DNA of 38,076 nucleotides from a virus (Duplodnaviria; Heunggongvirae; Uroviricota; Caudoviricetes). Of this stretch, positions 18,657 to 38,076 are shown piece after piece. Position 1 is the stretch's first letter. Every line of letters begins with the position of its first letter. The stretch covers positions 1 to 38,076 of IMG/VR virus record IMGVR_UViG_2690316068_000004; one strand, given 5' to 3'. The notes under the pieces are model-generated. The model saw only the letters and a program-made list of their open reading frames with translations, made no database searches and was not told where the DNA came from. Made by a program: the position numbers and the translations under genes.

Positions 18657-18711
18657 AAAAAAATCCCGTAAAAAAAGCCGCACAGGCGGCCTTTAGTGAT
18701 GAAGGGTAAAG

Positions 18712-19044
18712 TTAAACGATGCTGATTGCCGTTCCGGCAAACGCGGTCCGTTTTTTCGTCTCGTCGCTGGCAGCCTCCGGCCAGAGCACATCCTCATAAC
18801 GGAACGTGCCGGACTTGTAGAACGTCAGCGTGGTGCTGGTCTGGTCAGCATCAACCGCCAGAATGCCAACGGCAGCACCGTCGGTGGTGCCATCCCACGC
18901 AACCAGCTTACGGGTGGAGGTATCCAGCATCAGCGGGGTCATTGCAGGCGCTTTCGCACTCAATCCGCCGGGCGCGGTTGCCGTATGTGCCGGGTCACTG
19001 TTGCCCAGCGGCTGGTAATGGGTAAAGGTTTCTTTGCTCGTCAT
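18712..19044 (-). CDS. D: Head decoration protein D
   Basis: Matches lambda D from [12 protein letters not shown]; 110 aa. Confidence 0.95.
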
Positions 19045-19053
19045 AAACATCCC

Positions 19054-19659
19054 TTACACTGGTGTGTTCAGCAAATCGTTAACGGCATCAGATGCCGGGT
19101 TACCTGCAGCCAGCGGTGCCGGTGCCCCCTGCATCAGACGATCCAGCGCAGTGTCACTGCGCGCCTGTGCACTCTGTGGTGCAGCTGCCAGAATGCGGCG
19201 GGCCGTTTCCACGGTCATACCGGGGGTTTCGGCTAGCACGCGTGCCTGTTCTTCGCGTCCGTGAGTCTCCTCACAGTTGAGGATCCCCATAATGCGACTG
19301 TTTTCTGCCGCAACCGCTGCGGTGATCTGCGCGTTCACGTCCGGCTGCGCAGCGCTGGCGTTCTCGCCATCCGTCGCTTGCACTACGCCAGTAACGTCAG
19401 CCTGCGAAGCAGTGGCTGAAACAGTTGTTGATTGAGTCTCTTTGGTCATTCGCCCTCCTGAGAGACGGGATTTACGTGCATCCAGTGCATCACGCATGAC
19501 GGTGATCGCATCGGTACTGTTAACAAGTTCATCAGCCAGTCCGGCATCAATGGCCTCCTGACCGCTGTACACTGCAGCCTCGGTATCCAGCACAGCCTGC
19601 ACGGACAGGCCGGTATATGCCGACACCTTCTGTGCAAACATCCGGCGGGTTGCATCCAT
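19054..19659 (-). CDS. nu3: Scaffolding protein Nu3, in-frame internal start within C
   Basis: In-frame ATG at 19657..19659, 714 nt into C as in lambda; begins MDATRRMFAQKVS. Confidence 0.7.
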   Translation of the reverse strand: MDATRRMFAQKVSAYTGLSVQAVLDTEAAVYSGQEAIDAGLADELVNSTDAITVMRDALDARKSRLSGGRMTKETQSTTVSATASQADVTGVVQATDGENASAAQPDVNAQITAAVAAENSRIMGILNCEETHGREEQARVLAETPGMTVETARRILAAAPQSAQARSDTALDRLMQGAPAPLAAGNPASDAVNDLLNTPV

Positions 19660-20353
19660 CCGGGACTGCAGTGTTTCCCGGACATCATCCGGTAGATGGC
19701 TGTAGGGGTTGCCATCCACCTTATGGCTGCCGCTGTAAATCAGCGTGATTTCCACGCCCTGTTTCTCCAGCGCAGCACCGTAATTACTGTGAGCCATCAT
19801 GACGCCGATGGAGCCTGTCCGGGCGGTCTGCGTGACCAGACGTCGGGAGGCGGCGCTGGCAAGCAACTGACCTGCACTGCAGTTCATGTCGTTGGCCAGC
19901 GCCCATACCGGCTTTATGTCACGCACACGGGCGATGATGTCAGCGCAGTCAAATGCCCCTGCCACCATCCCGCCTGGCGTATCCATATCGAGCAGAATGC
20001 CGTCCACCATCGGGTCGCTGGCAGCCTGTTGCAGACGGGCGATAATGCCGTTGTAACCGGTCATCCCCGAATACGGCTGCAGCGCTCGCGTCCGACTGAC
20101 CAGCGTGCCGGACACCGGCAGCACGGCGATGCCGTTCATGACCTGATAACTGCGGGCCTGTCGTGGTCCGTCATCATCAACGGATAACGCCAGCGCCGCG
20201 GGTGCCTCTCCGGCAGTCAGGCTGTCGCCGGATACCGCATCCGTCAGGCGGCTGATCCCAAGCTGGCCTGCAAGCGCACAAAAGAAAACCCGCGCATAGG
20301 CGGGTTCAAGCATCAGCGGCTCATTAAAGGCCATACTGGCAATATGCGGGAGA

Positions 20354-20373: not shown

Positions 20374-24054
<3,681 letters not shown>

Positions 24055-24080
<26 letters not shown>

Positions 24081-24600
24081 TCAGCAACCCCGGTATCAGT
24101 TCATCCAGCGCGGCTGCTTTGTTCATGGCTTTGATGATATCCCGTTTCAGGAAATCAACATGTCGGTTTTCCAGTTCCGGAAAACGCCGCTGTACCGAGA
24201 GAGGGATCCCGTCAAGAATACTGGCAATTTCACCTGCGATCCGTGACAGCACGAAAGTACAGAATGCGGTTTCCACCACTTCTGCGGAGTCTCTGGCATT
24301 CTTCAGCTCCTGGGCGTCAGCCTGCGCACGCGTAAGTCGATGGCGTTCGTACTCAATAGTCCCAGGCTGGAGATCTGCCTCGCTGGCAGCCCTGTAATCC
24401 TCAACCTCTTTACGGAGTTTTTCATTTTCGATATCAGCTTCCCTCTGCGCATACCACTGAATTGCCATGGCGGTATCAAATACAGATTCAACGCCCTTAC
24501 CACCTCCGGAGACGCAAGGGAGTCCCTGAGACTGCCAGCGTTCAATCGTTCGCGGATCCACGTTGAAAATTTCGGCAAGTTTCTTTTTATTAACCTTCAT
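24055..24600 (-). CDS. nu1: Terminase small subunit Nu1, N-terminal DNA-binding region divergent from lambda
   Basis: 181 aa; residues ~50-181 match lambda Nu1 as recalled, residues 1-50 differ. Confidence 0.9.
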
Positions 24601-24787
24601 GAAACAGTCTCACAATAAATACAGGGTCCGACATGAAAGTGCCCGAAAATGACTTTTTTAGGCGTTTTCATGTCGGACCTTTACGGATTCGATATTAGAA
24701 AAAACAAATAGTTATGTTCGAGAAGTACCGACATGATTTTCCCCGGAAAATTTTCATAAATAGCGAAAACCCGCGAGGTCGCCGCCC
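24601..24787 (-). promoter_or_regulatory. cos site: cosN cohesive end (aggtcgccgccc at 24776..24787, i.e. GGGCGGCGACCT on minus) and cosB with three CCGACATGA-type repeats
   Basis: Minus-strand GGGCGGCGACCTCGCGGGTTTTCGCTATTTATGAAAATTTTCCGG matches the lambda left end; repeats at 24627..24640, 24667..24679 (inverted) and 24726..24736. Confidence 0.8.
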
Positions 24788-24935
24788 CGTAACCTCTTGG
24801 ATCGACGGAAAGGACCCGAAAACGAGAATAATTATCACTTACAGCAAGAATCGAATCTGATCTATTATGGTGCTTGCTATTACGTGCCGGCACAAGTGCG
24901 TCGTTTACCGTCATTTCACACAGAGGCATCATCAA

Positions 24936-25187
24936 ATGAAAATCAGAAATATTCTCGCTATCTCCCTTGCGACATCATCCTTCAGTTGCCTGGCATTTAA
25001 ATCCTCGCCCAATGTGCTACCAGGACCAACGAATCAACTAACTGCGGTAGAAAGTAAAATTATCGGACATTTTTATGCCCCACACAGTACATTACCCGGA
25101 ACAACCATCACAGGGACATGTGACGCCTCCCCCGTCCCGGGATGCACCTGTCCGTTTTGTACTATGCTGCGTAGCCAAAACCGATAA
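24936..25187 (+). CDS. Hypothetical small secreted protein (signal-peptide-like N-terminus, Cys-rich C-terminus)
   Basis: Internal start MKIRNILAISLATSSFSCLA within ORF 24867..25187; start not verified. Confidence 0.35.
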   Translation: MKIRNILAISLATSSFSCLAFKSSPNVLPGPTNQLTAVESKIIGHFYAPHSTLPGTTITGTCDASPVPGCTCPFCTMLRSQNR

Positions 25188-25550
25188 CATCCGCATTTAC
25201 CTGGTATTCCATGATGAGTTCACGCAGCGACTGATAGAGGAAGGAAAGATGGTTAGTAAAAGCAAGGCGCATTGCCGCCGCATGCTGCAGGCATTGCAAC
25301 AGACGAGAGCAGGTATTTTTGACCAGTTGGAAAACTGCCAGCATACTTTGCCCGAGTATATCGCCATCTCATCGGAAACCAGTGCAACTCTTATTCATCG
25401 GGTTCCACCAGAGAAAAAGAAGAAATGAACAGTGAGGCGTTGTGTGGCATACAACGCCTTCTTCCATCATTCCTCGTCAGCCATGACAAAAATATAACCG
25501 CTGGCTCTTTCATTTTTCTCCTGCTTCCAGCCCCTCTCTACCTGGAAGCA

Positions 25551-25880
25551 TCAAGGACGTGACGGCGTAAAGATAAATTGTCTCTTCACTCCCTGACAGG
25601 GGCGATTCTTTTCAAATCGCCATTTCGCCATGGCCTTCACCACTTCATCACGAAACAAATTATGAGGCTCTGAGCGGAGAAAAACGATCCGTGTCACAGT
25701 CCCATCAGCACCAATATCGAACTTAACCTCAACCAGCCCCTTGATATAATTTGCTGCAGCATATTCCGGATATCGTGGATACACCGTCACTAATTGCCGG
25801 GGCTCATCAGCTTTTTGCTGCGAGCATCCCACTGCCAGGACAGATAACAGAAAAAGTAGTAAAAGGCGTCTTTTCATTTT
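25551..25880 (-). CDS. Putative lipoprotein with TonB C-terminal-like domain
   Basis: Internal start MKRRLLLLFLLSVLAVGC (lipobox LAVGC) followed by a YP...G.V.V.F.I...G.V TonB-C-like pattern. Confidence 0.55.
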   Translation of the reverse strand, partial: KMKRRLLLLFLLSVLAVGCSQQKADEPRQLVTVYPRYPEYAAANYIKGLVEVKFDIGADGTVTRIVFLRSEPHNLFRDEVVKAMAKWRFEKNRPCQGVKRQFIFTPSRP

Positions 25881-26358
25881 TATTCCTACGGGTCTTATTC
25901 TGACAATATATCCTGTGTTCCAGACTGCCACATCACCACATCCTGTGCCATTATCTGACTCACATTACATACATCGCATCGGGATACAGTAGTAGCACTT
26001 TCTGTAATACAGCTTCCTGTTTCTTCCACCATCGCACCGGGATAAACCCGCGAATCATTAACGCGGTAAAAACCCGGTGTGCATCGTTTTTAATTATTCC
26101 CGCACACTCACGCAGAAGGAATTCCCCCGTCGGGCTACGGTCATGGTTAATGCGGGAATACGGCGACGATACAGCGCAGCTAAAAGGGTAATGGACGGAT
26201 AGACCGGTTTATTTCATTCCACAGGATTCTGAGTGTCCCCAACTTCCTCCAATAGTCTGAGCCCACCTGTGTAGTTTTAATTTTCATCAATCCATTTAAC
26301 TATCGTTTAATTGTTGTCACATAGGATTCTGCCGTTTTTAACAATGCAGGATAATAAG

Positions 26359-26652
26359 ATGAAAAAAATGTTGTTTTCTGCCGCTCTGGCAATGCTTATT
26401 ACAGGATGTGCTCAACAGACGTTTACTGTTGGAAACAAACCTACAGCAGTAACACCAAAGGAAACCATCACCCATCATTTCTTCGTTTCGGGAATTGGGC
26501 AGAAGAAAACTGTCGATGCAGCAAAAATTTGTGGTGGTGCAGAAAATGTTGTTAAAACAGAAACCCAGCAAACATTCGTAAATGGATTGCTCGGTTTTAT
26601 TACTTTAGGCATTTATACTCCGCTGGAAGCGCGTGTGTATTGCTCACAATAA
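26359..26652 (+). CDS. bor: Bor lipoprotein (serum-resistance moron)
   Basis: MKKMLFSAALAMLITGCAQQTFTV... matches lambda Bor; opposite strand to the lysis genes as in lambda. Confidence 0.9.
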   Translation: MKKMLFSAALAMLITGCAQQTFTVGNKPTAVTPKETITHHFFVSGIGQKKTVDAAKICGGAENVVKTETQQTFVNGLLGFITLGIYTPLEARVYCSQ

Positions 26653-26683
26653 TTGCATGAGTTGCCCATCGATATGGGCAGCT

Positions 26684-27145
26684 CTATCTGCACTGCTCAT
26701 TAATATACTTCTGGGTTCCTTCCAGTTGTTTTTGCATAGTGATCAGCCTCTCTCTGAGGGTGAAATAATCCCGTTCAGCGGTGTCTGCCAGTCGGGGGGA
26801 GGCTGCATTATCCACGCCGGAGGCGGTGGTGGCTTCACGCACTGACTGACAGACTGCTTTGATGTGCAACCGACGACGACCAGCGGCAACATCATCACGT
26901 AGAGCATCATTTTCAGCTTTCGCATCAGCTAACTCCTTCGTGTATTTTGCATCGAGCGCAGCAACATCACGCTGACGCATCTGCATGTCAGTAATTGCCG
27001 CGTTCGCCAGCTTCAGTTCTCTGGCATTTTTGTCGCGCTGGGCTTTGTAGGTAATGGCGTTATCACGATAATGATTAACAGCCCATGACATGCAGACGAT
27101 GATGCAGATGAGCAGAGCGGAGATAATCGCGGCTACTCTTCTCAC
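26684..27145 (-). CDS. Rz: Inner-membrane spanin Rz, GTG start
   Basis: (V)[44 protein letters not shown]... matches lambda Rz; GTG at 27143..27145 preceded by GGGGGA. Confidence 0.85.
26743..26925 (-). CDS. Rz1: Outer-membrane lipoprotein spanin Rz1, embedded in Rz in the +1 frame
   Basis: 60 aa [24 protein letters not shown]...[15 protein letters not shown], lipobox and proline-rich as in lambda Rz1. Confidence 0.85.
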
Positions 27146-27676
27146 TGATCTATCCCCCAACAGGCTAAATGCGCTTTCCTGGTCACGACGAATAACCTGT
27201 CCGTAGCAGTTATTTGAACGTGTGCGGCAATCACGCCCACCGTCCTTAATCCACCAGCGAATCGACTCACAGGCACCTTTACGATCACCGGCATTAAGCC
27301 GCTTATAAAACGTCGACGGGAAACACTTACCGGGGCCAATGTTATAGGGACAAAATGACGCGATACCTGCTTTTTGTGGCTCGGTCAGTGGAACTTTTAT
27401 ATTACGCTCCACCCATGCCAGCGCCTTATCCCGCTCAATGGCGTTAACCTGGGCGCATTTTTCCTTCGACAGTTTCATGCCCGGAATAACAGGTTTACCC
27501 TCCACCACAGTGGCACCCCGGCAAATGGTCCATATGCCGGAACCATCGCGGTATGCCGTTGTGTGGTTACCCTCTTTTTCGTCCAGAAACTGGTCAAGTA
27601 TCTGAGGAGCAGACGCGCCTGCGGCAATCAGCGCCAGAACAGCAGCCGACAGGCCGTATCTGATTTTTACGTTCAT
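27142..27676 (-). pseudogene. R: Phage lysozyme (GH24-type, signal-anchor N-terminus), apparently frameshifted near the 3' end so the ORF reads through into Rz
   Basis: The 330-aa ORF is lysozyme (aa 1-177) plus Rz (aa 178-330) with no stop; the expected C-terminus ...ACWGIDQ and TGA at 27142..27144 lie in the +1 frame; the span is 535 nt, one more than 178 codons. Confidence 0.7.
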
Positions 27677-27810
27677 GGATATTTATCAGGATTTATCGGT
27701 TTCTGAACCCTGGATATGTTAAGCATTCAGCCCGTCAGTGGTAGGACACTGGCGCTCTGGTTAAGGATTATGGGGGATGCTGGCTGAGCTACCCCATCTG
27801 AGGATTTGAT

Positions 27811-28050
27811 ATGCAAAAAGAAGTTTTTATCAATATTACAGCTGACTGCTCATCTCCTGCATCAACAGCAAAAGAAATTGAAGCTCTTAAATATATGATT
27901 ACAGTAATATTTTCCGTATTGGACCAGAATGAAAAAAATGGAATCATTCATCAATTAAATGAACATGTAAATAATCCATATATCAAAAGCAATCTGGAAA
28001 TGCTGCTACCAATGAAAGATATTGGAAAACCAACTGAAACAAAAGGCTAA
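27811..28050 (+). CDS. Hypothetical 79-aa protein, AT-rich moron inside the lysis cassette on the opposite strand
   Basis: ORF with GAGGA RBS 8 nt upstream of the ATG; AT-rich; no recognised homology. Confidence 0.5.
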   Translation: MQKEVFINITADCSSPASTAKEIEALKYMITVIFSVLDQNEKNGIIHQLNEHVNNPYIKSNLEMLLPMKDIGKPTETKG

Positions 28051-28361
28051 CAACCAGTAATTGAGTTATCTGAACTGTTAATTTTTATGGTATACCGCGC
28101 CTCTGAACAGGGGCGCGTTTCTGGCAACAGCTCGTCCCCTTCACATAACCCGGCAGCAACATCCAGGAAGACCTGTCTGATGCTCCTTCTGGCTGCAGCC
28201 TCATAAAACTCCAGCGCGGCACCTTCAACACGGTCCAGCGAGATGTCCAGGTCAAAAATTTCACCGTCAAAGCGTTTTTTGTCCCGTAATGCTAAAGTTA
28301 CCGTAACTTTATTCTCAAAATTGCGGATTCCTTTCACAATCATTTCATAGTATTGGGCCAT
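28047..28361 (-). CDS. Hypothetical 104-aa protein between holin and lysozyme (possibly YdfR/DUF1327-like; family unverified)
   Basis: Same strand as the lysis genes; starts 5 nt after the holin stop. Confidence 0.55.
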   Translation of the reverse strand: MAQYYEMIVKGIRNFENKVTVTLALRDKKRFDGEIFDLDISLDRVEGAALEFYEAAARRSIRQVFLDVAAGLCEGDELLPETRPCSEARYTIKINSSDNSITGC

Positions 28362-28365
28362 TATA

Positions 28366-28581
28366 TTACTCTCCTCTCGCAGCCTTTCTTCTGTCTTCTC
28401 TGATTTTGAAGTACAGATTTGTCAGATAAGTCAAAAAGCCCAGAACTAGACTTCCCAGCACACCAATTGCAGCCCACTGTGACGGACTGACCTGATCCAA
28501 CCACTGTAAAAACCAGTATCCCGCACTACCAGCGGATGTTCCGTAGGCAATGCCAGTTGAGATTTTGTCCATTGATTTCAT
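28366..28581 (-). CDS. S: Holin/antiholin, phage 21 S21 (pinholin) type with dual-start motif MKSMDK
   Basis: 71 aa [30 protein letters not shown]... with two TM segments; matches S21 as recalled. Confidence 0.85.
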
Positions 28582-28698
28582 AGCAACGCCTCCGCCAGTA
28601 ACGGATTGCGTAGTTCTTATATTGGGAATGGGAAAAAGAAGGCCGCAGCATAACTATCACTGATTAGTTCAGGATAGCCAGTGACTACGGCTAAGTTA

Positions 28699-28774
28699 TG
28701 GTGCTGGTTAACGGACTTGAACCGCCACCCATTCGCTTACAAGGCGACTGCTCTACCATTGGAGCTAAACCAGC
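28699..28774 (-). tRNA. tRNA, predicted anticodon UGU (Thr) from hand folding
   Basis: 76 nt folding as a cloverleaf with GCTC/GAGC D-stem, anticodon loop CTTGTAA, T-loop TTCAAGT, encoded CCA; C at position 14 and a G.A pair at the top of the anticodon stem. Confidence 0.6.
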
Positions 28775-28779
28775 ATGTT

Positions 28780-28854
28780 TGGCGGGACAGCGTGGACTCG
28801 AACCACGATAAGAAGGTTAACAGCCTTCCGTAATGACCTTTATACGACTGACCC
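28780..28854 (-). tRNA. tRNA-Asn (anticodon GUU)
   Basis: 75 nt with anticodon arm GAAGG-CTGTTAA-CCTTC, T-arm CGTGG-TTCGAGT-CCACG, encoded CCA; one T.T mismatch in the acceptor stem. Confidence 0.65.
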
Positions 28855-28910
28855 AAATAAAAAAAGCCACCGTTACAACTTAAGAGTCACTAACGGCAAC
28901 TTACCTGCTA

Positions 28911-28940
28911 ATTATGGCTAAATGGCTAATTGCATGTCAA
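28911..28940 (-). promoter_or_regulatory. Candidate late promoter pR' overlapping the Q stop codon
   Basis: Minus-strand TTGACA (28935..28940), 18-nt spacer, CATAAT (28911..28916); hairpin and T-run follow before the tRNAs. Confidence 0.4.
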
Positions 28941-29436
28941 GGCTTTTAACAGCAATATGCTTAACTTTCTCAACACGTTTACGCATTTTGAAAGCATTTT
29001 GCATTGGTTGGTACAAAACAAATAACGACGCTTTCAGGATGTCGTCAATTTCGTTTCTACAGGTTGCCAGTGAAGGTTTTCTCCATCCCTCGCCACCACG
29101 CCCACACATCTTGCGCGGCTTTGCAGTCGCGTGATAGTAGGATGCAATTGCTCGCTTAGATGAACCATGAGCGTAGTAGCTAAGGAGGATGCCAAAGGCT
29201 TTCTTGTCAATGCACATGACGGAATCGACGACCTGAGAAATCAACATTCCATCATCATCATTGCACATTGGCCTTGTCATAACTCTTCCCGGCTCTACGC
29301 TCTCCATGAACTTCGCTATTACGCTGCTCATGCGCTTTTCCAAACGACCTGAATAAACCCATGCGCCCCACAGTTCAAGCCAGCCATTCAGCCACTCGTG
29401 CTGCTCTTTGGTGAGGTTTAGCTCTCTTATACCCAT
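28918..29436 (-). CDS. Q: Late-gene antiterminator Q (phage 21/82-type Q family, not lambda-type)
   Basis: 172 aa with WGAW and CNDDD motifs characteristic of that Q family as recalled; canonical position before the tRNAs and holin. Confidence 0.7.
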
Positions 29437-30098
29437 GCGACTTCTCCCTGTACCTGAATCAATGTGAGGTTTCCGCAGAACACTGCGCCGGTATCGATAT
29501 ACATCTGGTTGGCAAATTTGAGTGGTTTCACTGCTGGCGTATGACCAAAGATGAACGTGTCCGCGCCTTTGATTTCTTTCACGATCCCGTCTTGTGAGTT
29601 GCCGATTCGTTCGCGGTTCCAGATTACCTGCTGAGGATCAACTGGCTTTCCAAATTCGTATTCGTTACAAGGATAATCGGCGTGGCAAATGACATATTTT
29701 TTATCTTTGCTCACCAGTTCGATGATTAACGGAAGTTCTTCTGCTTTATGGGCAAGAACTTTAGCCAGAGTCTCTTTGTCGTAATCGAGATTAAAGAACC
29801 AGCCACCGCCATTAAGCAGCCAGTGATTAACGTTTCCACGCTCTGATAAGCCATCAATCATCATTTGCTCATGGTTTCCACGTACAGCTCTGAACCAGGG
29901 GAATGTGATTAATTCCAGACATTCGACGTTCTCTGTACCGCGATCAACCAAATCGCCAACCGAGATGAGCAGGTCTTTTTTGTTGTCGAATCCAATCGTA
30001 TCCAGTTTGTTCATCAGGTTCGTGTAGCATCCGTGCAGGTCGCCAGCTACCCAAATATTTCGGTATTTGCTGCCATCAATTCTTTCGTAGATATTCAT
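29427..30098 (-). CDS. Ser/Thr protein phosphatase (lambda PPase / Nin221 homologue)
   Basis: GDLHG, GDLVDRG and GNHE metallophosphatase motifs; matches lambda phosphatase as recalled. Confidence 0.9.
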
Positions 30099-30709
30099 GC
30101 AGCCTCACTTCTGCTGTTTCGCAGGTCTTTGAGTTTCTGTTGGTACTCTGCCTTGATCGCCTTGCACTCTTCGACAGTCCAGCGATGGCGGTTATGGTTT
30201 GATTCGATTTCGTCTACTGCTTCCTGCCCGATGCGGCTAATCAGTTCGACGCGATACGGAACGAGATTTCCGCTTTTGTGCTGGTTGCACACCACGCATT
30301 GCTTGTGAATATTGCGTTCATCAAATCGGAGTTGAGGTGCCGCAGCAGTTGTCCGGTAATGTCCGGCATCCCACTGAGCAGACGTGAGCGTTCCGCACGA
30401 GATACATGGTAAGTCGCGGTCTCTTTCTCTGATGAAGGCGTTTACGGCTTGTTGGGCTTGTTTAATCCAGTAACTGCGGGGCTTTAAGGCGAGTTTTCGA
30501 ATCTTAAGTTTATCTTTCTGTTTCTGCTCCTCTCGTCGTCGTTTCTTCTCTGCTGCTTTTTCCGCTTTTTCGCGTTCTTTACTTCGTCGTTCGAGTGCTA
30601 TCTTGGTTCCACACTCTGGAGAGCACCACCACTGATTAGCGAATGCAGGGTGAAACCATTCCCGACATTCATCGTTTTTACATCGTCTTCGCGCTGGTTT
30701 AGCCATCAT
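30095..30709 (-). CDS. ninG: NinG (Rap) recombination-associated protein
   Basis: 204 aa [28 protein letters not shown]..., matches lambda NinG. Confidence 0.9.
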
Positions 30710-30869
30710 CTTCTTCCTCGTGCATCGAGCTATTCGAATCGCTCATCAGCTCTGCACAGCAGTGCTCACACACGTGAACTTCCAGCACATGCAGCTTCTG
30801 ACCGCAATTAGCGCACGTTAAAGCCCGCTCGACGCTTTCTTGTTCGTAACTTCGATTTGGGTCAATCAC
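30699..30869 (-). CDS. ninF: NinF, probable GTG start overlapping the NinE stop
   Basis: (V)[37 protein letters not shown] matches lambda NinF; longer ORF to 30911 is possible. Confidence 0.65.
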
Positions 30870-31048
30870 CTTGTATTCCTCGCACGATGTCTTAGCCACC
30901 GGATATCCCACAGGTGAGCCGTGTAGTTGAAGGTTTTTACGTCAGATTCTTTTGGGATTGGCTTGCGTTTATTTCTGGAGCGTTTCGTTGGAAGGTATTT
31001 GCAGTTTTCGCAGATGATGTCGGTGAAACTTCGTCGTTGTCGCCTCAT
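30866..31048 (-). CDS. ninE: NinE
   Basis: Internal start [23 protein letters not shown]... matches lambda NinE (60 aa). Confidence 0.8.
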
Positions 31049-31572
31049 GCCGCCCTCCTGACGCCCTGCCCGATCGCCATCAATGCCGCTTTGGATACGA
31101 TAGTAAACATCCGTCGAGGACTGATGAACGGTCGCCAAATCAGCAGCATGGAGCCTTTGCTGTTTCCCTTCTTTTCCAGCCCTGTCGATGGTTCGATAAA
31201 ATTAATCCGTCCATCAGTGATAATACGAACTTCGTCAACACTCTCCAGAGCCTTGCTGAACCATCCGACAGACATATCCTCTGGCACAAGCATCACTACC
31301 GTCTGTCGCTGTTGTATGCACTGCTCAGCGGCTTTTTCCACCCACGGCCTGATATTGCTGTACGGTGGGTTATTCCAGATTGCACCGTGGCTTACCCACT
31401 CAGAATTGAGCGCGTCGTCGTCCTCAGTTAGCCAGTGAGCGCACAGAGCATTTTTGTCGCTCGCTGCCGAATCCAGCCAGAATCCAAACTCAATATCCAG
31501 TGCATCAAAAAGCCAAAGCGGCGTTTGCCAGCAGTCCTTGTCGTGTGCTGGAGTATTTGATTTGATAGTCAT
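31045..31572 (-). CDS. Phage Dam-like DNA N6-adenine methyltransferase
   Basis: NPPY motif (IWNNPPYSN); ATG at 31570..31572 overlaps the NinB stop; occupies the slot of lambda ninC/ninD. Confidence 0.75.
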
Positions 31573-32009
31573 GCAGCCCGATCTCCCCATCGCGCTTTCC
31601 ATTCGAGAGCTAGTCGCGCTTCGTCTGACCACTTAACGCCACGCTCTGTACCGAATGCCTGTATAAGCTCTAATAGCTCCGCAAATTCGCTTACACGCAT
31701 CCTGCTGGTTGACTGGCCTATTACCACAAAGCCATTCCCGGCAAGGTTAGGAACAACGTCCTGCTGCTTTAATGCTGCTGTAAAAACGCACTTCCAGCTT
31801 TCTGCATCCAGCCAGCGACCATGCCATTCAACCTGACGAGAGACGTCACCAAGGCAAGCCCAAAGCTTTCGATTCTGGTCTAAGCTGCGGTTGCGTTCCT
31901 GAATGGTTACTACGATTGGTTTGGTTGGGTCTGGAAGGATTTGCTGGATAGCTTGAATGGCGTTCTGCTGATGTGCTGGAGATCGAATTTCAAAGGTTAG
32001 TTTTTTCAT
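31569..32009 (-). CDS. ninB: NinB (Orf) recombination mediator
   Basis: Internal start MKKLTFEIRSPAHQQNAI... matches lambda NinB. Confidence 0.9.
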   Translation of the reverse strand: MKKLTFEIRSPAHQQNAIQAIQQILPDPTKPIVVTIQERNRSLDQNRKLWACLGDVSRQVEWHGRWLDAESWKCVFTAALKQQDVVPNLAGNGFVVIGQSTSRMRVSEFAELLELIQAFGTERGVKWSDEARLALEWKARWGDRAA

Positions 32010-32082
32010 GACTTCCCTCTCCCCCAAATAAAAAGGCCTGCGATTACCAGCAGGCCTGTTATTAGCTCAGTGATGTAGATGG

Positions 32083-32373
32083 TCATCTTTTAACTCCATA
32101 TACCGCCAATACCCGTTTCATCGCGGCACTCTGGCGACACTCCTTAAAAATCAGGTTCGTGCTCATCTTTCCTTCCCGTTCTTCCCTGGTAGCAAACCGG
32201 TAATACACCGTTCGCCAGACCTTACCTTCGATAACCAGAAGACCTGCCCGTGCCATTTTAGCCGCGGCCTGATTTATGCTGGTTACTGTTGCGCCTGTTA
32301 GCGCGGCAACGTCCGGCGCACAGAAGCTATTATGCGTCCCCAAGTAATGAATAATTGCCTCTTTGCCCGTCAT
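32083..32373 (-). CDS. ren: Ren (Rex-exclusion relief) protein
   Basis: 96 aa MTGKEAIIHYLGTHNSFCAPDVAALTGATV..., matches lambda Ren. Confidence 0.9.
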   Translation of the reverse strand: MTGKEAIIHYLGTHNSFCAPDVAALTGATVTSINQAAAKMARAGLLVIEGKVWRTVYYRFATREEREGKMSTNLIFKECRQSAAMKRVLAVYGVKR

Positions 32374-33071
32374 ACACTTGCTCCTTTCAGTCCGAACTTA
32401 GCTTTGAGTTCTGCGATCTTCGCCAGAGCCTGTGCACGATTTAGAGGTCTACCGCCCATGACAGGAAGTTGTTTTACTGGTTCAGGGATCGCCTCACCAC
32501 GGTTAATTCTCGCAGTCATATGGACAAGCTCATCTGCGGCCTTACGGCGTAATTCCGCATCAGTAAGCGCATTGGCCCGCATGTTCTGATACAGGTTGGT
32601 AACCAGCCAGTAGTGCGCGTTCGATTTCCACGGATAAGACTCTGCATCCGGATACAGGCCTCGCTTCCGGCAATACTCGTAAACCATATCAACCAGCTCG
32701 CTGACGTTTGGCAGTCCGGCGATAACGGATGCTTCTTCTCGGCACCATGCAACAAACTGCCCGGGTGATGGCAGAAATGGTCGATTCTGCCGACGGGCTA
32801 CGCGCATTCCTGCGTTAACCTGTTCCATTGTGGTGATCCCGTTTTCCCGGAAAGCCAGAACCCACTGGCGGCGGATTTCGTTCAGTTCGTTCTGGTCACG
32901 GTTAGCCAGACTCGCCGGGAAAGTTGCCAGTAACTGGCTGAACACACCGTTGATGATCTGCGCAACCTGCTGTACCTGCGGCTTTTCGTCGTACTGTTCC
33001 GGCATGTTGTTGGCGATCCGACGCATCTGCTCACGGTCAAAGTTAACCATCTGTGCGGCGATGTTTTTCAT
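32370..33071 (-). CDS. P: Replication protein P (DnaB helicase loader)
   Basis: 233 aa MKNIAAQMVNFDREQMRRIANNMPEQYDEKPQ..., matches lambda P. Confidence 0.95.
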   Translation of the reverse strand: MKNIAAQMVNFDREQMRRIANNMPEQYDEKPQVQQVAQIINGVFSQLLATFPASLANRDQNELNEIRRQWVLAFRENGITTMEQVNAGMRVARRQNRPFLPSPGQFVAWCREEASVIAGLPNVSELVDMVYEYCRKRGLYPDAESYPWKSNAHYWLVTNLYQNMRANALTDAELRRKAADELVHMTARINRGEAIPEPVKQLPVMGGRPLNRAQALAKIAELKAKFGLKGASV

Positions 33072-33967
33072 AGATCCACCCCGTAAATCCAGTCTGTGTT
33101 TGTCAGGTCCAGTTTTGGTTTGCTGGCTGTCACGACTGCCTGTTGCTTGTTACGGTTGATTTCGAGCTGGGTCCACTTGTCGCGGAGTTTGGCCGGGCTA
33201 AGCACGTTACCGGACCAGAAGTTGTCCTGGCATGCCCAGCGGAACAGCACGCACATGTCGCGGTGGTTACGTCCGTCACGTTCACGCATCAGGCGGATAT
33301 CGTTAGCCCACCCAGCAAAATTCGGTTTTCTGGCTGATGGTGCGATAGTCTTCACCATGTCAAACATCCACTCTGCGGCGGTCAGGTCTTCTGCTGTTCC
33401 CCACTTGCTGCCGCTCTGAATTGCAGCATCCGGTTTAACCACAGAAAGATCGTTTTCTGGCTGGTCAGAGGATTCGCCAGAATTCTCTGACGAATAATCT
33501 TTTCTTTTTTCTTTTGTATTAGTGTCTTTTGTGTCCCCCTGTTTTGAGGGATAGCAATCCCCCAATTTGAGGGATGTTTTATCCCTCGTTTTAGGGGATT
33601 TTCCCTCGTTTTGAGGGATACACCATTCTGAGATGTTTTTATTTGGTCCAAACATGCCGCCTTGCTGCTTGATAATATTCATTCTGACGAGTTCTAACTT
33701 GGCTTCATTGCACCGTTTGACGGGTAACTTTGTAATCTCGCTAAGTTGAGAATCGGTGATTCTGTCCATTGGTTTATTCCACCCATAGGTTTTACGCAGA
33801 ATGGCAAGCAGCACTTTAAACTGTCGCTTGGTCAGATCTGCGCCTGAATAAGCCTCAAGCAGCATATTTGATAGTCTGGCGTAACCATCATCGAGATCTG
33901 CCACATTACGCTCCTGTTTGGCAAAGTTACCTCTGCAGAAGTTGAGTATTTTTGCTGTATTTGTCAT
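33068..33967 (-). CDS. O: Replication initiator O
   Basis: 299 aa MTNTAKILNFCRGNFAKQERNVADLDDGYARLSNMLLEAY..., matches lambda O. Confidence 0.95.
   Translation of the reverse strand: MTNTAKILNFCRGNFAKQERNVADLDDGYARLSNMLLEAYSGADLTKRQFKVLLAILRKTYGWNKPMDRITDSQLSEITKLPVKRCNEAKLELVRMNIIKQQGGMFGPNKNISEWCIPQNEGKSPKTRDKTSLKLGDCYPSKQGDTKDTNTKEKRKDYSSENSGESSDQPENDLSVVKPDAAIQSGSKWGTAEDLTAAEWMFDMVKTIAPSARKPNFAGWANDIRLMRERDGRNHRDMCVLFRWACQDNFWSGNVLSPAKLRDKWTQLEINRNKQQAVVTASKPKLDLTNTDWIYGVDL
33545..33629. repeat. ori-lambda iterons (four ~19-bp O-binding repeats) inside the O coding region, next to an AT-rich segment
   Basis: tccccctgttttgagggat, atcccccaatttgagggat, atccctcgttttaggggat, ttccctcgttttgagggat in tandem. 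Confidence 0.85.
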
Positions 33968-33979
33968 AATGACTCCTGT

Positions 33980-34056
33980 GGATTGATCCAGTAATGACCT
34001 CAGAATTCCATCTGGATTTGTTCAGAACGCTCGGTTGCCGCCGGGCGTTTTTTATT
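33980..34056 (+). ncRNA. oop: oop antisense RNA with tO terminator, overlapping the cII 3' end; 5' end approximate
   Basis: Plus-strand ...gttcagaacgctcggttgccgccgggcgttttttatt matches the lambda t0 terminator region as recalled. Confidence 0.6.
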
Positions 34057-34296
34057 GGTGAGTCCATCAAGCGCATACTTAAAAGCCCTGCTAATCGGAC
34101 TGATGTCTGATGCCATTCCGAAAGCACACAAGACCGAAGCAATAAATCTCCAGTCCGTTCTGCTTATCTTCGATTCATGACAGCCAATCATCTTTGCCAG
34201 ACCGCGCTGGGTAATAGCTGACAGATTGATAAGTAAATCTGTTTCTGCGCGATCAACGTCACGCTGTGATAGTTTGCTGTAACTTGTTCTTTCCAT
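34000..34296 (-). CDS. cII: Transcriptional activator CII, C-terminus lambda-like and N-terminal region divergent
   Basis: 98 aa ending TNKKRPAATERSEQIQMEF as in lambda CII. Confidence 0.8.
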   Translation of the reverse strand: MERTSYSKLSQRDVDRAETDLLINLSAITQRGLAKMIGCHESKISRTDWRFIASVLCAFGMASDISPISRAFKYALDGLTNKKRPAATERSEQIQMEF

Positions 34297-34382
34297 CTCT
34301 TAAGATTTCCAATAGTGAATAGTTAGTTGAAAGGTATGCGTGGAAACGCATATGGCCTTAGTTGGTCAGATATCTTGGAACT

Positions 34383-34427
34383 CGCTTTTCAGCGACGTAG
34401 GACGAATGTCCGTTGTTACAAAGAGCG
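34383..34427 (-). promoter_or_regulatory. nutR: boxA (CGCTCTTTG, 34419..34427) and boxB hairpin (CGCTGAAAAGCG, 34383..34394)
   Basis: boxA immediately after the cro stop; boxB stem-loop with GAAAA loop. Confidence 0.6.
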
Positions 34428-34437
34428 GATCCGCTTA

Positions 34438-34653
34438 TTAAGCGGCTTTGTGTTCCGGCGGGAACACGTCATCAAGACTGACTTTTGCGCCTAACTTGTT
34501 TAGGCACGCAACAAGAGCACGGCATGTTTTAAGGTCTGGGAAGCGACGACCAGATTCCCAATGTCCGATAGCTCCCTGTGTGCATCCAACTGCCTTAGCA
34601 AGTGTTGTTTGAGAGATATTCAGTGACTCTCGATATTTTCGTAGGTTGCTCAT
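34438..34653 (-). CDS. cro: Cro-type HTH repressor
   Basis: 71 aa from MSNLRKYRESLNISQTTLAKAVGCTQGAIGHWESG (HTH); GGAGGG RBS; divergent from cI. Confidence 0.8.
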   Translation of the reverse strand: MSNLRKYRESLNISQTTLAKAVGCTQGAIGHWESGRRFPDLKTCRALVACLNKLGAKVSLDDVFPPEHKAA

Positions 34654-34763
34654 ATGCCCTCCATAGTAAACACGAATAAAAAATACAATATGTACTTTAC
34701 GAATACAAGTAAAAATACACATTGTGCATGGATGGTTCCAGTACAAAGCGTAATAATAAGGAC
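34654..34763. promoter_or_regulatory. OR/pR/pRM region with candidate operator palindromes
   Basis: 110-bp cro-cI intergenic region; TACAATATGTA (34684..34694) and repeated ATACAA half-sites; shares AAAGTACATATYGTA with OL. Confidence 0.6.
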
Positions 34764-35423
34764 ATGAAAATGAAATGGTATGAACTGGCTAGATCCAGAA
34801 TGAAAGAGCTCGGCATAACTCAAGAGAAGTTAGCCGAAGAGCTAGGTATGACGCAGGGTGGGATTGGACACTGGTTGCGCGGATCTCGTCATCCATCTCT
34901 TAGTGATATTGGTGTGGTGTTTAAATACCTTGGTATTGATAACATATCATTCAACCACGACGGGACATTTTCACCTGTTGGCGAATACTCATCGGCCCCA
35001 GTTAAAAAACAATATGAGTACCCTGTTTTTTCTCATGTTCAGGCTGGGATGTTCTCTCCAGAACTCAGAACCTTTACCAAAGGCGATGCGGAGAGATTGG
35101 TAAGCACAACCAAAAAAGCCAGTGACTCTGCATTCTGGCTTGAGGTTGAAGGTAACTCAATGACCGCACCAACAGGTTCCAAACCCAGCTTTCCTGACGG
35201 GATGTTAATTCTGGTTGACCCTGAGCAAGCTGTTGAGCCCGGCGATTTCTGCATAGCCAGACTTGGTGGTGATGAATTTACCTTCAAGAAACTGATCAGG
35301 GATAGCGGTCAGGTGTTTCTACAGCCACTAAACCCACAATACCCAATGATCCCATGCAATGAGAGTTGTTCCGTTGTGGGGAAAGTTATCGCCAGCCAAT
35401 GGCCTGAAGAGACGTTTGGGTGA
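34764..35423 (+). CDS. cI: CI prophage repressor (N-terminal HTH, C-terminal LexA/S24-like autocleavage domain), non-lambda immunity
   Basis: C-terminus [35 protein letters not shown] matches lambda CI; N-terminal domain differs; AAGGA RBS before ATG 34764. Confidence 0.85.
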
Positions 35424-35462
35424 TGAAACCACTTTTATCTACAATTTACAGGGCGGTAAACA

Positions 35463-36020
35463 TTGGCAAAAATAGATGATTATCAGCCAAGCCAAGTAGA
35501 AGTTGATAAAGTACTTTATTGTAAAAAAATAGTTAACTTTTCTGGCGTTAAATGGAAACAGAAACCAAGTCGCTCTGATATGTGGCTACAAGCTCATATC
35601 ATCCCCTTGGATGAGGATTGTATACCTATACAAGGGCTAAAGTTTGAACTGAAATGGAAACCAGATCAGGATTCAGAACCTGATGACCCGATTTCTTACC
35701 CTAAAATAAATATTATTGCTTTCTATCATAACAAGAGGGTTTTCGCGGTAGATACCTATCACTTTGACAAACACACGAATAGTTACAAGGTCGATCATCC
35801 GAAGTACCAAGATATCATTTACGGTGCTCACTACCATGTATACTATGAAGAAGCTGGATACTATAGTGATAGAATAGCGTTTCCAATCGAAGATGACATA
35901 AACCCAGATGACCTGGTAGGGTATTGGAATTACTTCTGTAAACATCTGAACATAACTTACTCTGGGAGAATACCTTTACCGCTTGAAGATGAGTCGGGGC
36001 AAATGGGGTTTGGAATATGA
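35463..36020 (+). CDS. Hypothetical 185-aa protein, first gene of the module in the rexA slot; TTG start
   Basis: ORF begins 39 nt after the cI stop; AT-rich; acidic, Tyr/His-rich; no TM segments or motifs recognised. Confidence 0.6.
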   Translation: MAKIDDYQPSQVEVDKVLYCKKIVNFSGVKWKQKPSRSDMWLQAHIIPLDEDCIPIQGLKFELKWKPDQDSEPDDPISYPKINIIAFYHNKRVFAVDTYHFDKHTNSYKVDHPKYQDIIYGAHYHVYYEEAGYYSDRIAFPIEDDINPDDLVGYWNYFCKHLNITYSGRIPLPLEDESGQMGFGI

Positions 36021-36769
36021 TGTGCTCAACAGTGATCTCACAACTAGGTTTCGAATGCCATCCAATAGGCAAGACCTTGAGAATTATCAGTCCATTCACT
36101 TACTGTGATGATGGAGAGCATGTCGGTGCCTTTATCCGTGAAGTCAATGGTAGGTATTTAGTTAGTGACAGATGCGATGCCTTAATGAATATGGAGGCAA
36201 GAGGGATCTCGCTTACCAAAAAACGACTTGATGAGATACGACAATTACTGCTTAAAGAAGGCGCAGAACTCAATGCTCGAGGAGAAATCATTGCTTGGGC
36301 AACAGAAAAGGATGTCGGTGCGATTACATCGAACATAATTAGAGCTGGTATACTCGCATCAACTTTGTCGTTAGACTGGTATCAGCCAGTTCAAGCTGAA
36401 AAGTTTGAAAGTATGGTTATTGATTATCTATATCACACAGAGCTTAGAGACGCACTTTCTCTTCGTGAAAACGTATATGGCTTGAGTGGACATCAAATTA
36501 CCGTCCCTGTAACAATAAAAACCGACATACCTAAATACGTTTTTACATCAAGCGTGAAACACGGAGGAAGCTGGAATAGTGCTTACTCATTGCTTGGGAA
36601 ACTAATTGATCTTAAAGCTTCAAGTGAGGAGTATAACAACAGATTTGTTGTTATAGACAGCGAAGCAATTGGTGATCAAATGCAACAACTCTCCTTACTC
36701 TTCCATGAATCAAGCCAAGTTCTACCATTCTCCAAAAGAGAGACTTGGGTTAAGAGACTTGCAGCATAA
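36017..36769 (+). CDS. Hypothetical 250-aa protein, second gene of the module in the rexB slot
   Basis: ATGA start/stop overlap with the upstream ORF; soluble; no homology recognised. Confidence 0.6.
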   Translation: MMCSTVISQLGFECHPIGKTLRIISPFTYCDDGEHVGAFIREVNGRYLVSDRCDALMNMEARGISLTKKRLDEIRQLLLKEGAELNARGEIIAWATEKDVGAITSNIIRAGILASTLSLDWYQPVQAEKFESMVIDYLYHTELRDALSLRENVYGLSGHQITVPVTIKTDIPKYVFTSSVKHGGSWNSAYSLLGKLIDLKASSEEYNNRFVVIDSEAIGDQMQQLSLLFHESSQVLPFSKRETWVKRLAA

Positions 36770-36774
36770 TACAA

Positions 36775-36800
36775 CCCGGCCTCAGCGCCGGGTTTTCTTT
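36775..36800 (+). terminator. Rho-independent terminator ending the cI operon (tImm-like)
   Basis: cccggc-ctcagc-gccggg hairpin followed by ttttcttt. Confidence 0.7.
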
Positions 36801-36972
36801 GCCTCACGTTCGCCCACCTAAAAACACATAACCAATTATATTTATTGAAAAATAAATAGATGCAACCCACTAAACCACGCAATTCTGATCTCTCCTTACA
36901 TCGCCGAGGCAATACATCCACGCTAAAAAACAACACTATTAAATACAAAGCGTTATAAAAAACCACGCCAAC

Positions 36973-37016
36973 TTACAACAAATTGTATTGATCTTGCAAA
37001 GTACATATCGTACTAT
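36973..37016 (+). promoter_or_regulatory. pL promoter with OL operators
   Basis: -35 ttgatc (36988..36993), 17-nt spacer, -10 tactat (37011..37016); operators ttacaacaaattgta (36973..36987) and agtacatatcgtact (37000..37014). Confidence 0.6.
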
Positions 37017-37062
37017 TCAACCGTCAGCAGGACGCTGGAAGCCAAATGGAACAGACTGGCAG

Positions 37063-37107
37063 GCTCTTTAAACAACGTCGACTCTCGACTACGTGGCTGA
37101 AAAGCCA
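37063..37107 (+). promoter_or_regulatory. nutL: boxA (gctctttaaa, 37063..37072) and boxB hairpin (tggctgaaaagcca, 37094..37107)
   Basis: Same boxA/boxB pattern as nutR on the other strand; GAAAA loop as in lambda boxB. Confidence 0.6.
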
Positions 37108-37205
37108 GATCACCCAACCACATAAGATGTGGGATGCAATGCCGAAGCAACCGTCTCAGGAGGAGCTTCGAGATTGCATCGCCAAAGTTTATTCGGGAGG
37201 AATCC

Positions 37206-37478
37206 ATGTCCAGAAAAACAGAATTTAAAGGCACCGCAGCTTCTCGCCGTAGAGCTCGTCGCGCAAATCTGCAAAGTCAGGAGGCGATCAGCTCCGACAA
37301 GCTACACAGGCCAACCCCTTCACGAGTGGTCTTGCAATGCAAGCGCAAACCAGCAATGAGAGCAGAAGTGATAACTCTGACAACGTTGACCAGAAAATAT
37401 GAAGGTTCAACTTGTCTTCCGAACGTAGCTCTTTACGCGGCAGGCTACCGGAAATCAAAACAACTGACGGCGAGATGA
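37206..37478 (+). CDS. N: Antitermination protein N (arginine-rich motif near N-terminus)
   Basis: 90 aa from MSRKTEFKGTAASRRRARRANLQS; GGGAGGAA RBS; downstream of pL and nutL. Confidence 0.7.
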   Translation: MSRKTEFKGTAASRRRARRANLQSQEAISSDKLHRPTPSRVVLQCKRKPAMRAEVITLTTLTRKYEGSTCLPNVALYAAGYRKSKQLTAR

Positions 37479-37494
37479 TAAATTCATTTGCTAA

Positions 37495-38076
37495 TTACTT
37501 GTTTTTGCCATGCTTATCCTGAGCGATAAGTTCATCCATAAGGCTGTCTGCCTTCCCGGCAAACCTAATGTAGCACTCATGTCTATAGCTTTCAGGGATA
37601 ACGAAACGGTCGGTATCAGGATATCCAACAGCAGGAGGCCTTCGAACGAGGAGTCCTTTTTTGAGCAATGAAATTGATTCATGAGCGCCCTTTTCCGTTT
37701 GTAGCTGGTTATTAGCGGCTACAGCGAATGCCAAATACGCTCTTTCTCCAAGAGTTAACGAATCAAACAAATCTTGCACATATTTTTCTTCTTTAGATTT
37801 GCGCTTCTGAGCAGCGAATACCTCAATTCTTTCAGTCACAGCGTGATAAGCGGAATTAACAACGCCGTTAAGCACATAGCTAACGCAAAACAACAGGATG
37901 TAATACATCCAGTAATGAGGAAGGATTTCTGGATTATGCAGGTTTATCCATTCTTTTACGCTTACCGGCATAACAATAATCAATATGATCAGGATGATTA
38001 GCATATGAATCAACTGTTTAAGTGTCATTCCTTGCAGGAAAAAATGCATTAGTTCCTGCCACCATGAGTTGTTCAT
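37495..38076 (-). CDS. sieB: SieB-like superinfection exclusion protein; start is at the window edge so may be 5'-truncated
   Basis: 193 aa with hydrophobic N-terminal segments (MLIILIILIIVMPV; YILLFCVSYVL); convergent with N, where lambda sieB lies. Confidence 0.55.
   Translation of the reverse strand: MNNSWWQELMHFFLQGMTLKQLIHMLIILIILIIVMPVSVKEWINLHNPEILPHYWMYYILLFCVSYVLNGVVNSAYHAVTERIEVFAAQKRKSKEEKYVQDLFDSLTLGERAYLAFAVAANNQLQTEKGAHESISLLKKGLLVRRPPAVGYPDTDRFVIPESYRHECYIRFAGKADSLMDELIAQDKHGKNK

Follow-up and report, generated by a model that had tools for sequence, protein, structure and literature searches.

The late-operon tRNA-Asn(GUU)/tRNA-Thr(UGU) pair of a lambdoid Escherichia coli prophage: probable nuclease-resistant copies of host tRNAs

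Tandem genes for a tRNA-Asn(GUU) and a tRNA-Thr(UGU) after the late antiterminator gene Q have been described for the phages SfI, Sf6, ST64T, PS3, and 21 in the SfI genome paper (PMC3636060). The late regulatory region of phage 21 was described in 1991 by Guo, Kainz, and Roberts (PMID 1704887), whose account is used here as it is reflected in the GenBank annotation and in the SfI paper. In 2025, Govande et al. reported that the nuclease P2 OLD cuts the anticodon stem of the host tRNA-ThrU at paired CNG motifs and thereby amputates the arm, and that phage-encoded tRNAs-Thr(UGU) resist this cleavage and replace the host species (PMC12445682). The tRNA-Thr21 of phage 21 protects cells from P2 OLD. 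It remains uncut without ATP and is cut poorly at 150 mM K+, with almost complete resistance at site 1; resistance requires both the shortened anticodon stem and the altered CNG motif (C28U/G42A). Overexpression of host thrU gives no protection, whereas the phage tRNA-Thr does. Furthermore, tRNA-Thr21 decodes ACA in vivo, a codon for which tRNA-ThrU is the sole reader in E. coli K-12. Host tRNA-Asn is also cut by OLD, albeit more slowly (PMC12445682). According to an independent 2026 preprint, tRNA-Thr(UGU) is a prime OLD target, and the tRNAs-Thr(UGU) of T4, of T5-like phages, and of the temperate phage HK446 rescue OLD-sensitive phages. The main targets listed there are Thr, Gly, fMet, Val, and Pro tRNAs, with Asn not among them, and a phage tRNA-Thr(UGU) alone failed to rescue lambda from OLD.

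Two further tRNA nucleases are drawn on for comparison. AriB of the PARIS system cuts tRNA-Lys(UUU) as well as tRNA-Thr(UGU) efficiently and tRNA-Asn(GUU) secondarily, and its cleavage site lies between positions 40 and 41 in the sequence U36-A-A-U39-C40-N41 (PMC12409363). In tRNA-Lys, the exchange U39A abolishes and the exchange A41C inhibits cleavage. The Lys, Thr, and Asn variants of phage T5 jointly neutralise PARIS, and the T5 tRNA-Lys is required for escape (PMC12409363). The toxin CdiA-CT(EC869) prefers G73 in combination with a weak 1:72 pair (host tRNA-Asn has U1-A72), and it cuts a tRNA-Gln variant with G1-C72 poorly (PMC9071432).

We analysed a stretch of 38,076 nt of viral DNA, referred to as the window in the following. 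A preliminary description, made from the sequence alone, had placed two tRNA genes 5 nt apart at positions 28699-28854 and had assigned them the anticodons UGU (Thr) and GUU (Asn), leaving the strand unmentioned. ARAGORN, run on the whole window, found exactly two tRNA genes, both on the minus strand, and the Rfam model RF00005 agreed with it on coordinates and anticodons. In the order of transcription, the tRNA-Asn(GUU) gene (28854→28780; 75 nt) is followed by the 5-nt spacer AACAU (28779-28775), which separates the CCA of tRNA-Asn from G1 of tRNA-Thr, and by the tRNA-Thr(UGU) gene (28774→28699; 76 nt). Read on the minus strand, tRNA-Asn has the sequence GGGUCAGUCGUAUAAAGGUCAUUACGGAAGGCUGUUAACCUUCUUAUCGUGGUUCGAGUCCACGCUGUCCCGCCA and tRNA-Thr the sequence GCUGGUUUAGCUCCAAUGGUAGAGCAGUCGCCUUGUAAGCGAAUGGGUGGCGGUUCAAGUCCGUUAACCAGCACCA; the CCA end is encoded in both. 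The Rfam scores were 60.1 bits (E=1e-10) for tRNA-Thr and 55.3 bits (E=2e-9) for tRNA-Asn, far above the gathering score of 29. Thus, the check that had been proposed, a tRNA finder plus covariance model, left both genes and both anticodon assignments unchanged. Beyond tRNA, no RNA family reached the Rfam threshold anywhere in the 38,076 bases. In the same comparison, the host tRNAs thrU, asnT, and tyrU scored 73.8, 72.6, and 53.4 bits, respectively, which places the window tRNAs 13-17 bits below thrU and asnT and no lower than tyrU. Minimum-free-energy folding of single sequences gave no cloverleaf for the phage tRNA-Thr, host thrU, or host asnT alike.

The setting of the two genes is that of a lambdoid late operon. 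On the minus strand, a gene for a NinI-type phosphatase (30098-29427) precedes the open reading frame of the late antiterminator Q (29436-28918; 172 aa), a Sf6/BTP1-type member of the Q21 family that is annotated as Q in the prophage of E. coli strain Q5 and is a homologue of the product of Sf6 gene 59. The promoter pR' (28940-28911, minus strand) consists of the -35 element TTGACA (28940-28935), an 18-nt spacer, and the -10 element CATAAT (28916-28911), with 11 of 12 consensus matches, and its position corresponds to that of the pR' annotated in Sf6 and phage 21. The GenBank annotation of phage 21 puts the start site 7 nt past the -10 element and 50 nt ahead of tRNA-Asn; by this homology, transcription in the window would start at approximately 28904. 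The resulting 50-nt stretch (28904-28855, minus strand) comprises the late leader and the intrinsic terminator tR', a hairpin followed by UUUUUUUAUUU. RNA folding gave -15.9 kcal/mol (z = -3.8) for the hairpin, with the U run directly after the stem, and tRNA-Asn begins at the base right after this U run. The terminator matches those annotated for Sf6 and phage 21 (PMID 1704887), which likewise end one base ahead of tRNA-Asn. On the other side, the first late protein gene past the tRNAs, 117 nt after tRNA-Thr, is the open reading frame of an S21-type class II pinholin/antiholin (28581-28366, minus strand; 71 aa); it is annotated as a class II holin in Q5, corresponds in position to S21-71 of phage 21, and is followed by the lysis and morphogenesis genes. 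The pair is therefore located on the late strand between Q-pR'-tR' and the holin gene, as in the phage 21/Sf6/BTP1 type; the order annotated for phage 21 and Sf6 is pR', qut/QBE, tR', tRNA-Asn, tRNA-Thr, holin. The preliminary description had called this the usual tRNA slot of lambdoid phages, and the pair is indeed annotated there in phage 21, Sf6, BTP1, and the Q5 prophage. Because the tRNA genes sit directly after tR', they are presumably transcribed only when Q-modified polymerase reads through the terminator, i.e., at the same time as the late proteins. Host RNase P and 3' trimming would then free them from the transcript, as in standard tRNA maturation in E. coli.

The pair itself has been known since 1991; it is the routinely annotated Asn-Thr tRNA pair of lambdoid phages. 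The part of the window from 21121 to 38076 shares 99.97% identity with a prophage in E. coli strain Q5, in which PGAP annotates both tRNAs. Over its 156 nt, the pair shows 99.4% identity to phage 21, and the value is the same for BTP1 and for Salmonella phage S107. Full-length copies are present in 60 phage records, and 369 of 5426 complete E. coli genomes (~7%) carry the pair with high identity. The order Asn, short spacer, Thr and the identity to the type copies assign it to the phage 21/Sf6/BTP1 type, and the gap of 5 nt recurs in at least 100 related loci. Phage 21 (GenBank OL657228) shares with the window the gene order, the 5-nt spacer, the abutment on tR', and the S21 holin. Its tRNA-Asn is identical (75/75), also to the copies in Sf6 and ST64T, and its tRNA-Thr matches at 75 of 76 positions, including the entire anticodon arm. 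The sole difference within the tRNA pair is A49 in phage 21 versus G49 in the window, which turns the A-U of the T stem into G.U. By contrast, the Q gene and promoter of the window are of the Sf6/BTP1 sequence type, from which the phage 21 record OL657228 differs. Sf6, BTP1, SPN9CC, ST64T, SfI, and other P22-like or lambdoid phages have the same slot and both anticodons, with 96-98% identity from the 3' end of Q through pR' and tR' to the tRNAs.

Other phages fill the slot differently. The second gene of ST64T-type phages, in the place of tRNA-Thr, is a diverged tRNA-like element of 69 nt that scores 42.1 bits with Rfam and is not called by ARAGORN; in Salmonella phage ST64T (L004:681-749) the anticodon arm is altered (…CCUUCCUAAGAAGG…). 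Klebsiella phages (L005 and L006, 601-920) hold a larger array, Asn-Phe(GAA)-Thr(UGU)-Arg(UCU), which shares expression from the late transcript with the window and in which tRNA-Asn retains the paired CNG motif. Further viral contigs carry variant arrays, such as Asn-Phe-Thr-Arg-Gly(UCC) and Asn alone followed by a terminator. Stx phages use the same slot between Q and the lysis/stx genes for ileZ-argN-argO, likewise expressed from the late transcript and with different anticodons. Many lambdoid phages, including lambda, have no tRNA genes at this site. Outside the lambdoid phages, P1 has a tRNA-Asn and a tRNA-Thr(UGU) gene, 2 nt apart and in the same order and with the same anticodons as in the window. 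However, the P1 genes lie in the unrelated context of the ban operon region, are only ~78% identical, and have the canonical A14 and fully paired stems; P1 tRNA-Thr keeps CUG/CAG and P1 tRNA-Asn keeps U39. Asn and Thr(UGU) tRNAs thus recur in unrelated coliphages, being adjacent in P1 and part of one array in an N4-like phage. Short contigs of metagenome-assembled genomes labelled with non-enterobacterial genera, Segatella copri (L011) and Collinsella sp. (L014), carry the enterobacterial phage Asn-Thr pair and are probably mis-binned phage contigs.

Both tRNAs of the window deviate from the canonical cloverleaf. Position 14 of tRNA-Thr is C, where the model consensus has a conserved A, and G27 faces A43 in its anticodon stem (GUCGC/GCGAA). 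In tRNA-Asn, U4 faces U69 in the acceptor stem. These three irregularities, seen in the cmscan alignment and in the sequence, had already been named in the preliminary description; it had missed a fourth mismatch, U13 opposite U22 in the D stem of tRNA-Asn. Non-Watson-Crick 13:22 combinations are common in tRNAs. In addition, tRNA-Thr has G49.U65 in the T stem, and tRNA-Asn has G1-C72, G73, a variable loop of 4 nt, and the anticodon stem GAAGG/CCUUC. The conserved core (U8, A14, G18, G19, U33, the UUC of the T54 loop, and A58) is complete in tRNA-Asn and, except for C14, in tRNA-Thr. At the Levitt pair 15:48, both tRNAs have A:U where host thrU has G:C, which fits a normal tertiary fold. Single mismatches say little here, because host thrU itself carries A52.C62 and the window tRNAs score no lower than host tyrU. 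Judged by sequence, the established identity elements are present: G1-C72, C2-G71, G35, and U36 in tRNA-Thr, and G34, U35, U36, and G73 in tRNA-Asn.

To see how these positions behave among relatives, about 180 loci were gathered from phage records as well as from viral contigs and species genomes, and the distinct sequences were tabulated. The counts for viral contigs are minimum values from samples rather than totals (at least 120 matches listed in each of two scans); a strict-pattern scan of species-genome contigs gave 6 loci. The search pattern of the first viral scan fixed C14 and the anticodon arm of tRNA-Thr and was to that extent ascertainment-biased. A rescan anchored on tRNA-Asn, followed by re-tabulation, removes most of this bias at C14 and 27:43. 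In the 30 distinct tRNA-Thr sequences listed, 94.3% of the cells are standard pairs, and 10 of the 21 pairs have changes on both sides. None of 500 shuffles reached this covariation, and sliding the pairing partners lowered the paired share to 21-49%. Double changes include U3-A70 to C-G, U6-A67 to C-G, and G5-C68 to U-A, and 49:65 runs through the series A-U, G.U (the form of the window), and G-C. For the 24 distinct tRNA-Asn sequences listed, the paired share is 89.9%, and 6:67, 7:66, and 28:42 have changed in a compensatory manner; in the Klebsiella lineage, A6-U67/G7-C66 is replaced by G-C/A-U and A28-U42 by C-G. Covariation thus keeps a cloverleaf with stems of 7, 4, 5, and 5 bp, with fixed exceptions at 27:43 of tRNA-Thr and at 4:69 and 13:22 of tRNA-Asn. 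Among the distinct variants listed, 27:43 is unpaired in 29 of 30, 4:69 in 22 of 24, and 13:22 in all 24. Position 14 of tRNA-Thr, among the matches listed, is C in 129 cases, U in 3, and G in 1, and never A. Across about 165 copies, the compensatory changes show purifying selection on both genes as tRNAs, while the mismatches stay. In the tRNA-Asn of Atlantibacter subterraneus (L015:1834-1908), the D, anticodon, and T arms all differ completely, but the acceptor stem GGGUCAG/CUGUCCC, including U4.U69, is identical to that of the window, and the usual tRNA-Thr comes next.

The irregular anticodon stem of tRNA-Thr acquires a meaning when it is set against the OLD substrates. The stem of the window tRNA, GUCGC/GCGAA, is the arm of tRNA-Thr21, whereas the host has ACUGA/UCAGU. 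At the OLD motif, 27:43 is unpaired, U28/A42 replaces the host's C28/G42, and UCG/CGA stands where the host has CUG/CAG. Since the arm is the same as in tRNA-Thr21, the G.A pair of the preliminary description coincides with a published resistance determinant. In tRNA-Asn, the motif reads AAG/CUU, compared with a paired CNG (CGG/CCG) in host asnT. The anticodons UGU and GUU are, moreover, those of host tRNAs targeted by the nucleases. From these positions we infer that the window tRNA-Asn is also a nuclease-resistant replacement, namely for host tRNA-Asn(GUU). CNG loss is not universal in the family, for the Klebsiella-type tRNA-Asn in the same slot has CAG/CUG, a full paired CNG.

By analogy with the 1-nt variant tRNA-Thr21, the most probable reading (roughly 0.7) is that both genes encode functional phage elongator tRNAs that serve mainly as nuclease-resistant copies of host tRNAs and secondarily as extra capacity for ACA. 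In this lambdoid E. coli prophage, tRNA-Asn(GUU) and then tRNA-Thr(UGU) open the late operon right after tR'. Antitermination by Q would lead to the synthesis of both, and host RNase P together with 3' trimming would free them. Where Toprim anti-phage nucleases destroy host tRNAs, the phage would supply resistant copies: P2 OLD cuts host tRNA-ThrU, while the phage tRNA-Thr, lacking the 27:43 pair and carrying U28/A42, would survive and keep ACA readable. The phage tRNA-Asn may in the same way replace host tRNA-Asn(GUU), which is both a target of AriB and, secondarily, a substrate of OLD. A secondary gain would be a higher capacity for ACA, which the phage over-uses. The pair is of value mainly as an example: "non-canonical" features of a phage tRNA can have a function, as traces of an arms race between the phage and tRNA-cleaving immune systems (P2 OLD, PARIS).

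The positions next to the AriB cut are altered as well. Positions 36-41 read UAAGCG in tRNA-Thr versus UAAUCA in the host, and UAACCU in tRNA-Asn versus UAAUCC in the host; both window tRNAs are thus changed at 39 and 41 (G39/G41 in Thr, C39/U41 in Asn). This resembles T5, in which isoacceptors altered at or near the cut site replace the cleaved host tRNAs and with which two of three anticodons are common. However, T5 is virulent and has a large tRNA array with an essential tRNA-Lys, whereas the window prophage has only Asn and Thr under a late promoter. As the window phage lacks a tRNA-Lys(UUU), the prime PARIS target, the pair alone should not defeat PARIS. At the 1:72 position relevant for CdiA-CT(EC869), the phage tRNA-Asn has G1-C72 together with G73, unlike host tRNA-Asn with U1-A72.

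The conservation of C14, U4.U69, and U13.U22 lies outside what the published resistance mechanism explains. A bolder version of the resistant-copy reading, suggested by sequence comparison, would take the pair as a cassette of two tRNAs, expressed with late transcription, that counters Toprim nucleases of the anticodon stem, with tRNA-Asn as the second resistant replacement and with C14 and U4.U69 as additional evasion determinants at the reported distal contacts of AriB rather than neutral quirks. The role it gives to tRNA-Asn follows from the missing CNG, from C39/U41, and from G1-C72 in place of the weak U1-A72 of the host. We regard this version as tentative and, taken as a whole, rather doubtful. 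An answer on the role of tRNA-Asn and on the fixation of C14 and U4.U69 would extend the tRNA-Thr result to a cassette in ~7% of complete E. coli genomes; such an extension would count as incremental progress and would not define a novel type of system.

A related array in viral contigs (L146, L139, L166, L167, and L180; e.g., L180:1279-1512) has the order Asn, chimeric Thr, Gly(UCC). The chimeric tRNA-Thr joins a phage 5' half, including C14, to a thrU-like 3' half. In 8 viral contigs listed, its stem is ACUGA/UCAUC, in which G42U/U43C unpairs 27:43 and 28:42 and removes the 3' CNG; the copy in L180 keeps the unmodified thrU-like form. Going by these stems, the chimeric lineage has lost both pairs and the 3' CNG independently. 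The near identity of the array's tRNA-Gly to host glyT suggests the thrU-tyrU-glyT operon of the host as the source of a capture. Gly(UCC) is itself a reported OLD target. Just past the right end of the window, the Q5 prophage (Q5 locus 18668-19954) encodes Ral, CIII, Kil, and Gam. P2 OLD is, according to published work, triggered by Gam, so that a near-identical prophage has the trigger together with the probably resistant tRNA-Thr.

The alternative that fares best is pure codon supplementation, according to which the tRNAs only raise the supply for phage-favoured codons and thereby speed up late protein synthesis. We compared codon usage with one greedy ORF caller applied to the window and to a 50-kb sample of MG1655. 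ACA occurs at 12.9 per 1000 codons in the window ORFs (11.2 in the late genes) versus 5.4 per 1000 in the host sample, a 2.4-fold difference; the SfI paper gives 17.3 versus 7.1 (PMC3636060), and tRNA-ThrU is, as mentioned above, the only ACA reader of E. coli K-12. However, AGA (8.2 vs. 2.4 per 1000) and AUA (7.9 vs. 2.9 per 1000) are more enriched than ACA, and the phage has no tRNA for either. Asn codons, at 41.0 versus 38.0 per 1000, are unenriched, and the SfI authors likewise saw no bias (PMC3636060); for tRNA-Asn, codon supply is rejected on this count. Nor does codon supply account for the unpaired 27:43 and the altered stem, or for the protection from OLD by the phage tRNA-Thr that overexpressed host thrU does not give. 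As a full explanation, codon supply is therefore unlikely; as a secondary benefit of tRNA-Thr, it is plausible.

A second alternative sees the tRNAs as punctuation of the late transcript, i.e., as entry sites for RNase P and RNase E that detach the leader and terminator and set the 5' end of the mRNA, decoding being incidental. The abutment of tRNA-Asn on the U run of tR', the position of the pair ahead of the first late cistron, and the differing tRNA sets in the same slot would all suit this idea. On the other hand, either conservation or covariation is seen for the anticodons, the identity elements, and the pairs of the anticodon stem, which processing alone would not need, and many lambdoid phages manage without tRNAs at the site. 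The phage 21 tRNA-Thr decodes ACA in vivo, and for a related phage tRNA-Thr it is published that a mutation which keeps the fold and inactivates the anticodon loses the escape from OLD. We consider punctuation as the main function very unlikely.

The four departures from the canonical cloverleaf and core, together with Rfam scores 13-17 bits below the host isoacceptors, could also mark the genes as decaying relics or pseudo-tRNAs, and in the ST64T lineage the second gene is indeed degenerate enough for ARAGORN to miss it. Yet both scores clear the gathering threshold by a wide margin and are on a par with host tyrU, compensatory changes occur in all helices, the pair is found in 369 complete E. 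coli genomes with high identity and in 60 phage records over its full length, tRNA-Thr21 with its single nucleotide difference is functional in vivo, and host thrU tolerates its own A52.C62. The pseudogene reading, extremely improbable in view of the covariation and the Rfam scores, was rejected.

That the tRNAs might be nonsense suppressors rescuing an amber codon, which is really present in frame in the large terminase gene, is refuted by their anticodons, since GUU and UGU are not CUA, UUA, or UCA and cannot read UAG, as the preliminary description had concluded, and the same pair occurs in phages with an intact terminase, e.g., the Q5 prophage. The amber codon itself lies in the lambda gpA-like gene (22155-24080, minus strand; 641 codons) at 22407-22409 (minus strand), codon 558, in the context GAA GCG TAG CAG; in the Q5 prophage, this codon is CAG (Gln). 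With supE, an amber suppressor that inserts Gln, the terminase would regain the sequence it has in Q5.

Some observations concern the lysis region beyond the holin gene. Holin and endolysin genes are directly adjacent in phage 21, unlike in the window, where a DUF1327 gene (28047-28361, minus strand) and a small ORF (27811-28050, plus strand) lie between them. The endolysin R and the spanin Rz are fused into one ORF of 330 aa (26684-27676, minus strand). Relative to Q5, one A (at 27167) and one G (at 26794) are inserted in the window; Q5 itself has a separate lysozyme and an Rz with a frameshift annotation. Being single-base insertions, both may be sequencing errors. Past the lysis cassette, the window carries an iss/bor serum-survival lipoprotein gene (26359-26652, plus strand), which is annotated likewise in Q5 and phage 21.
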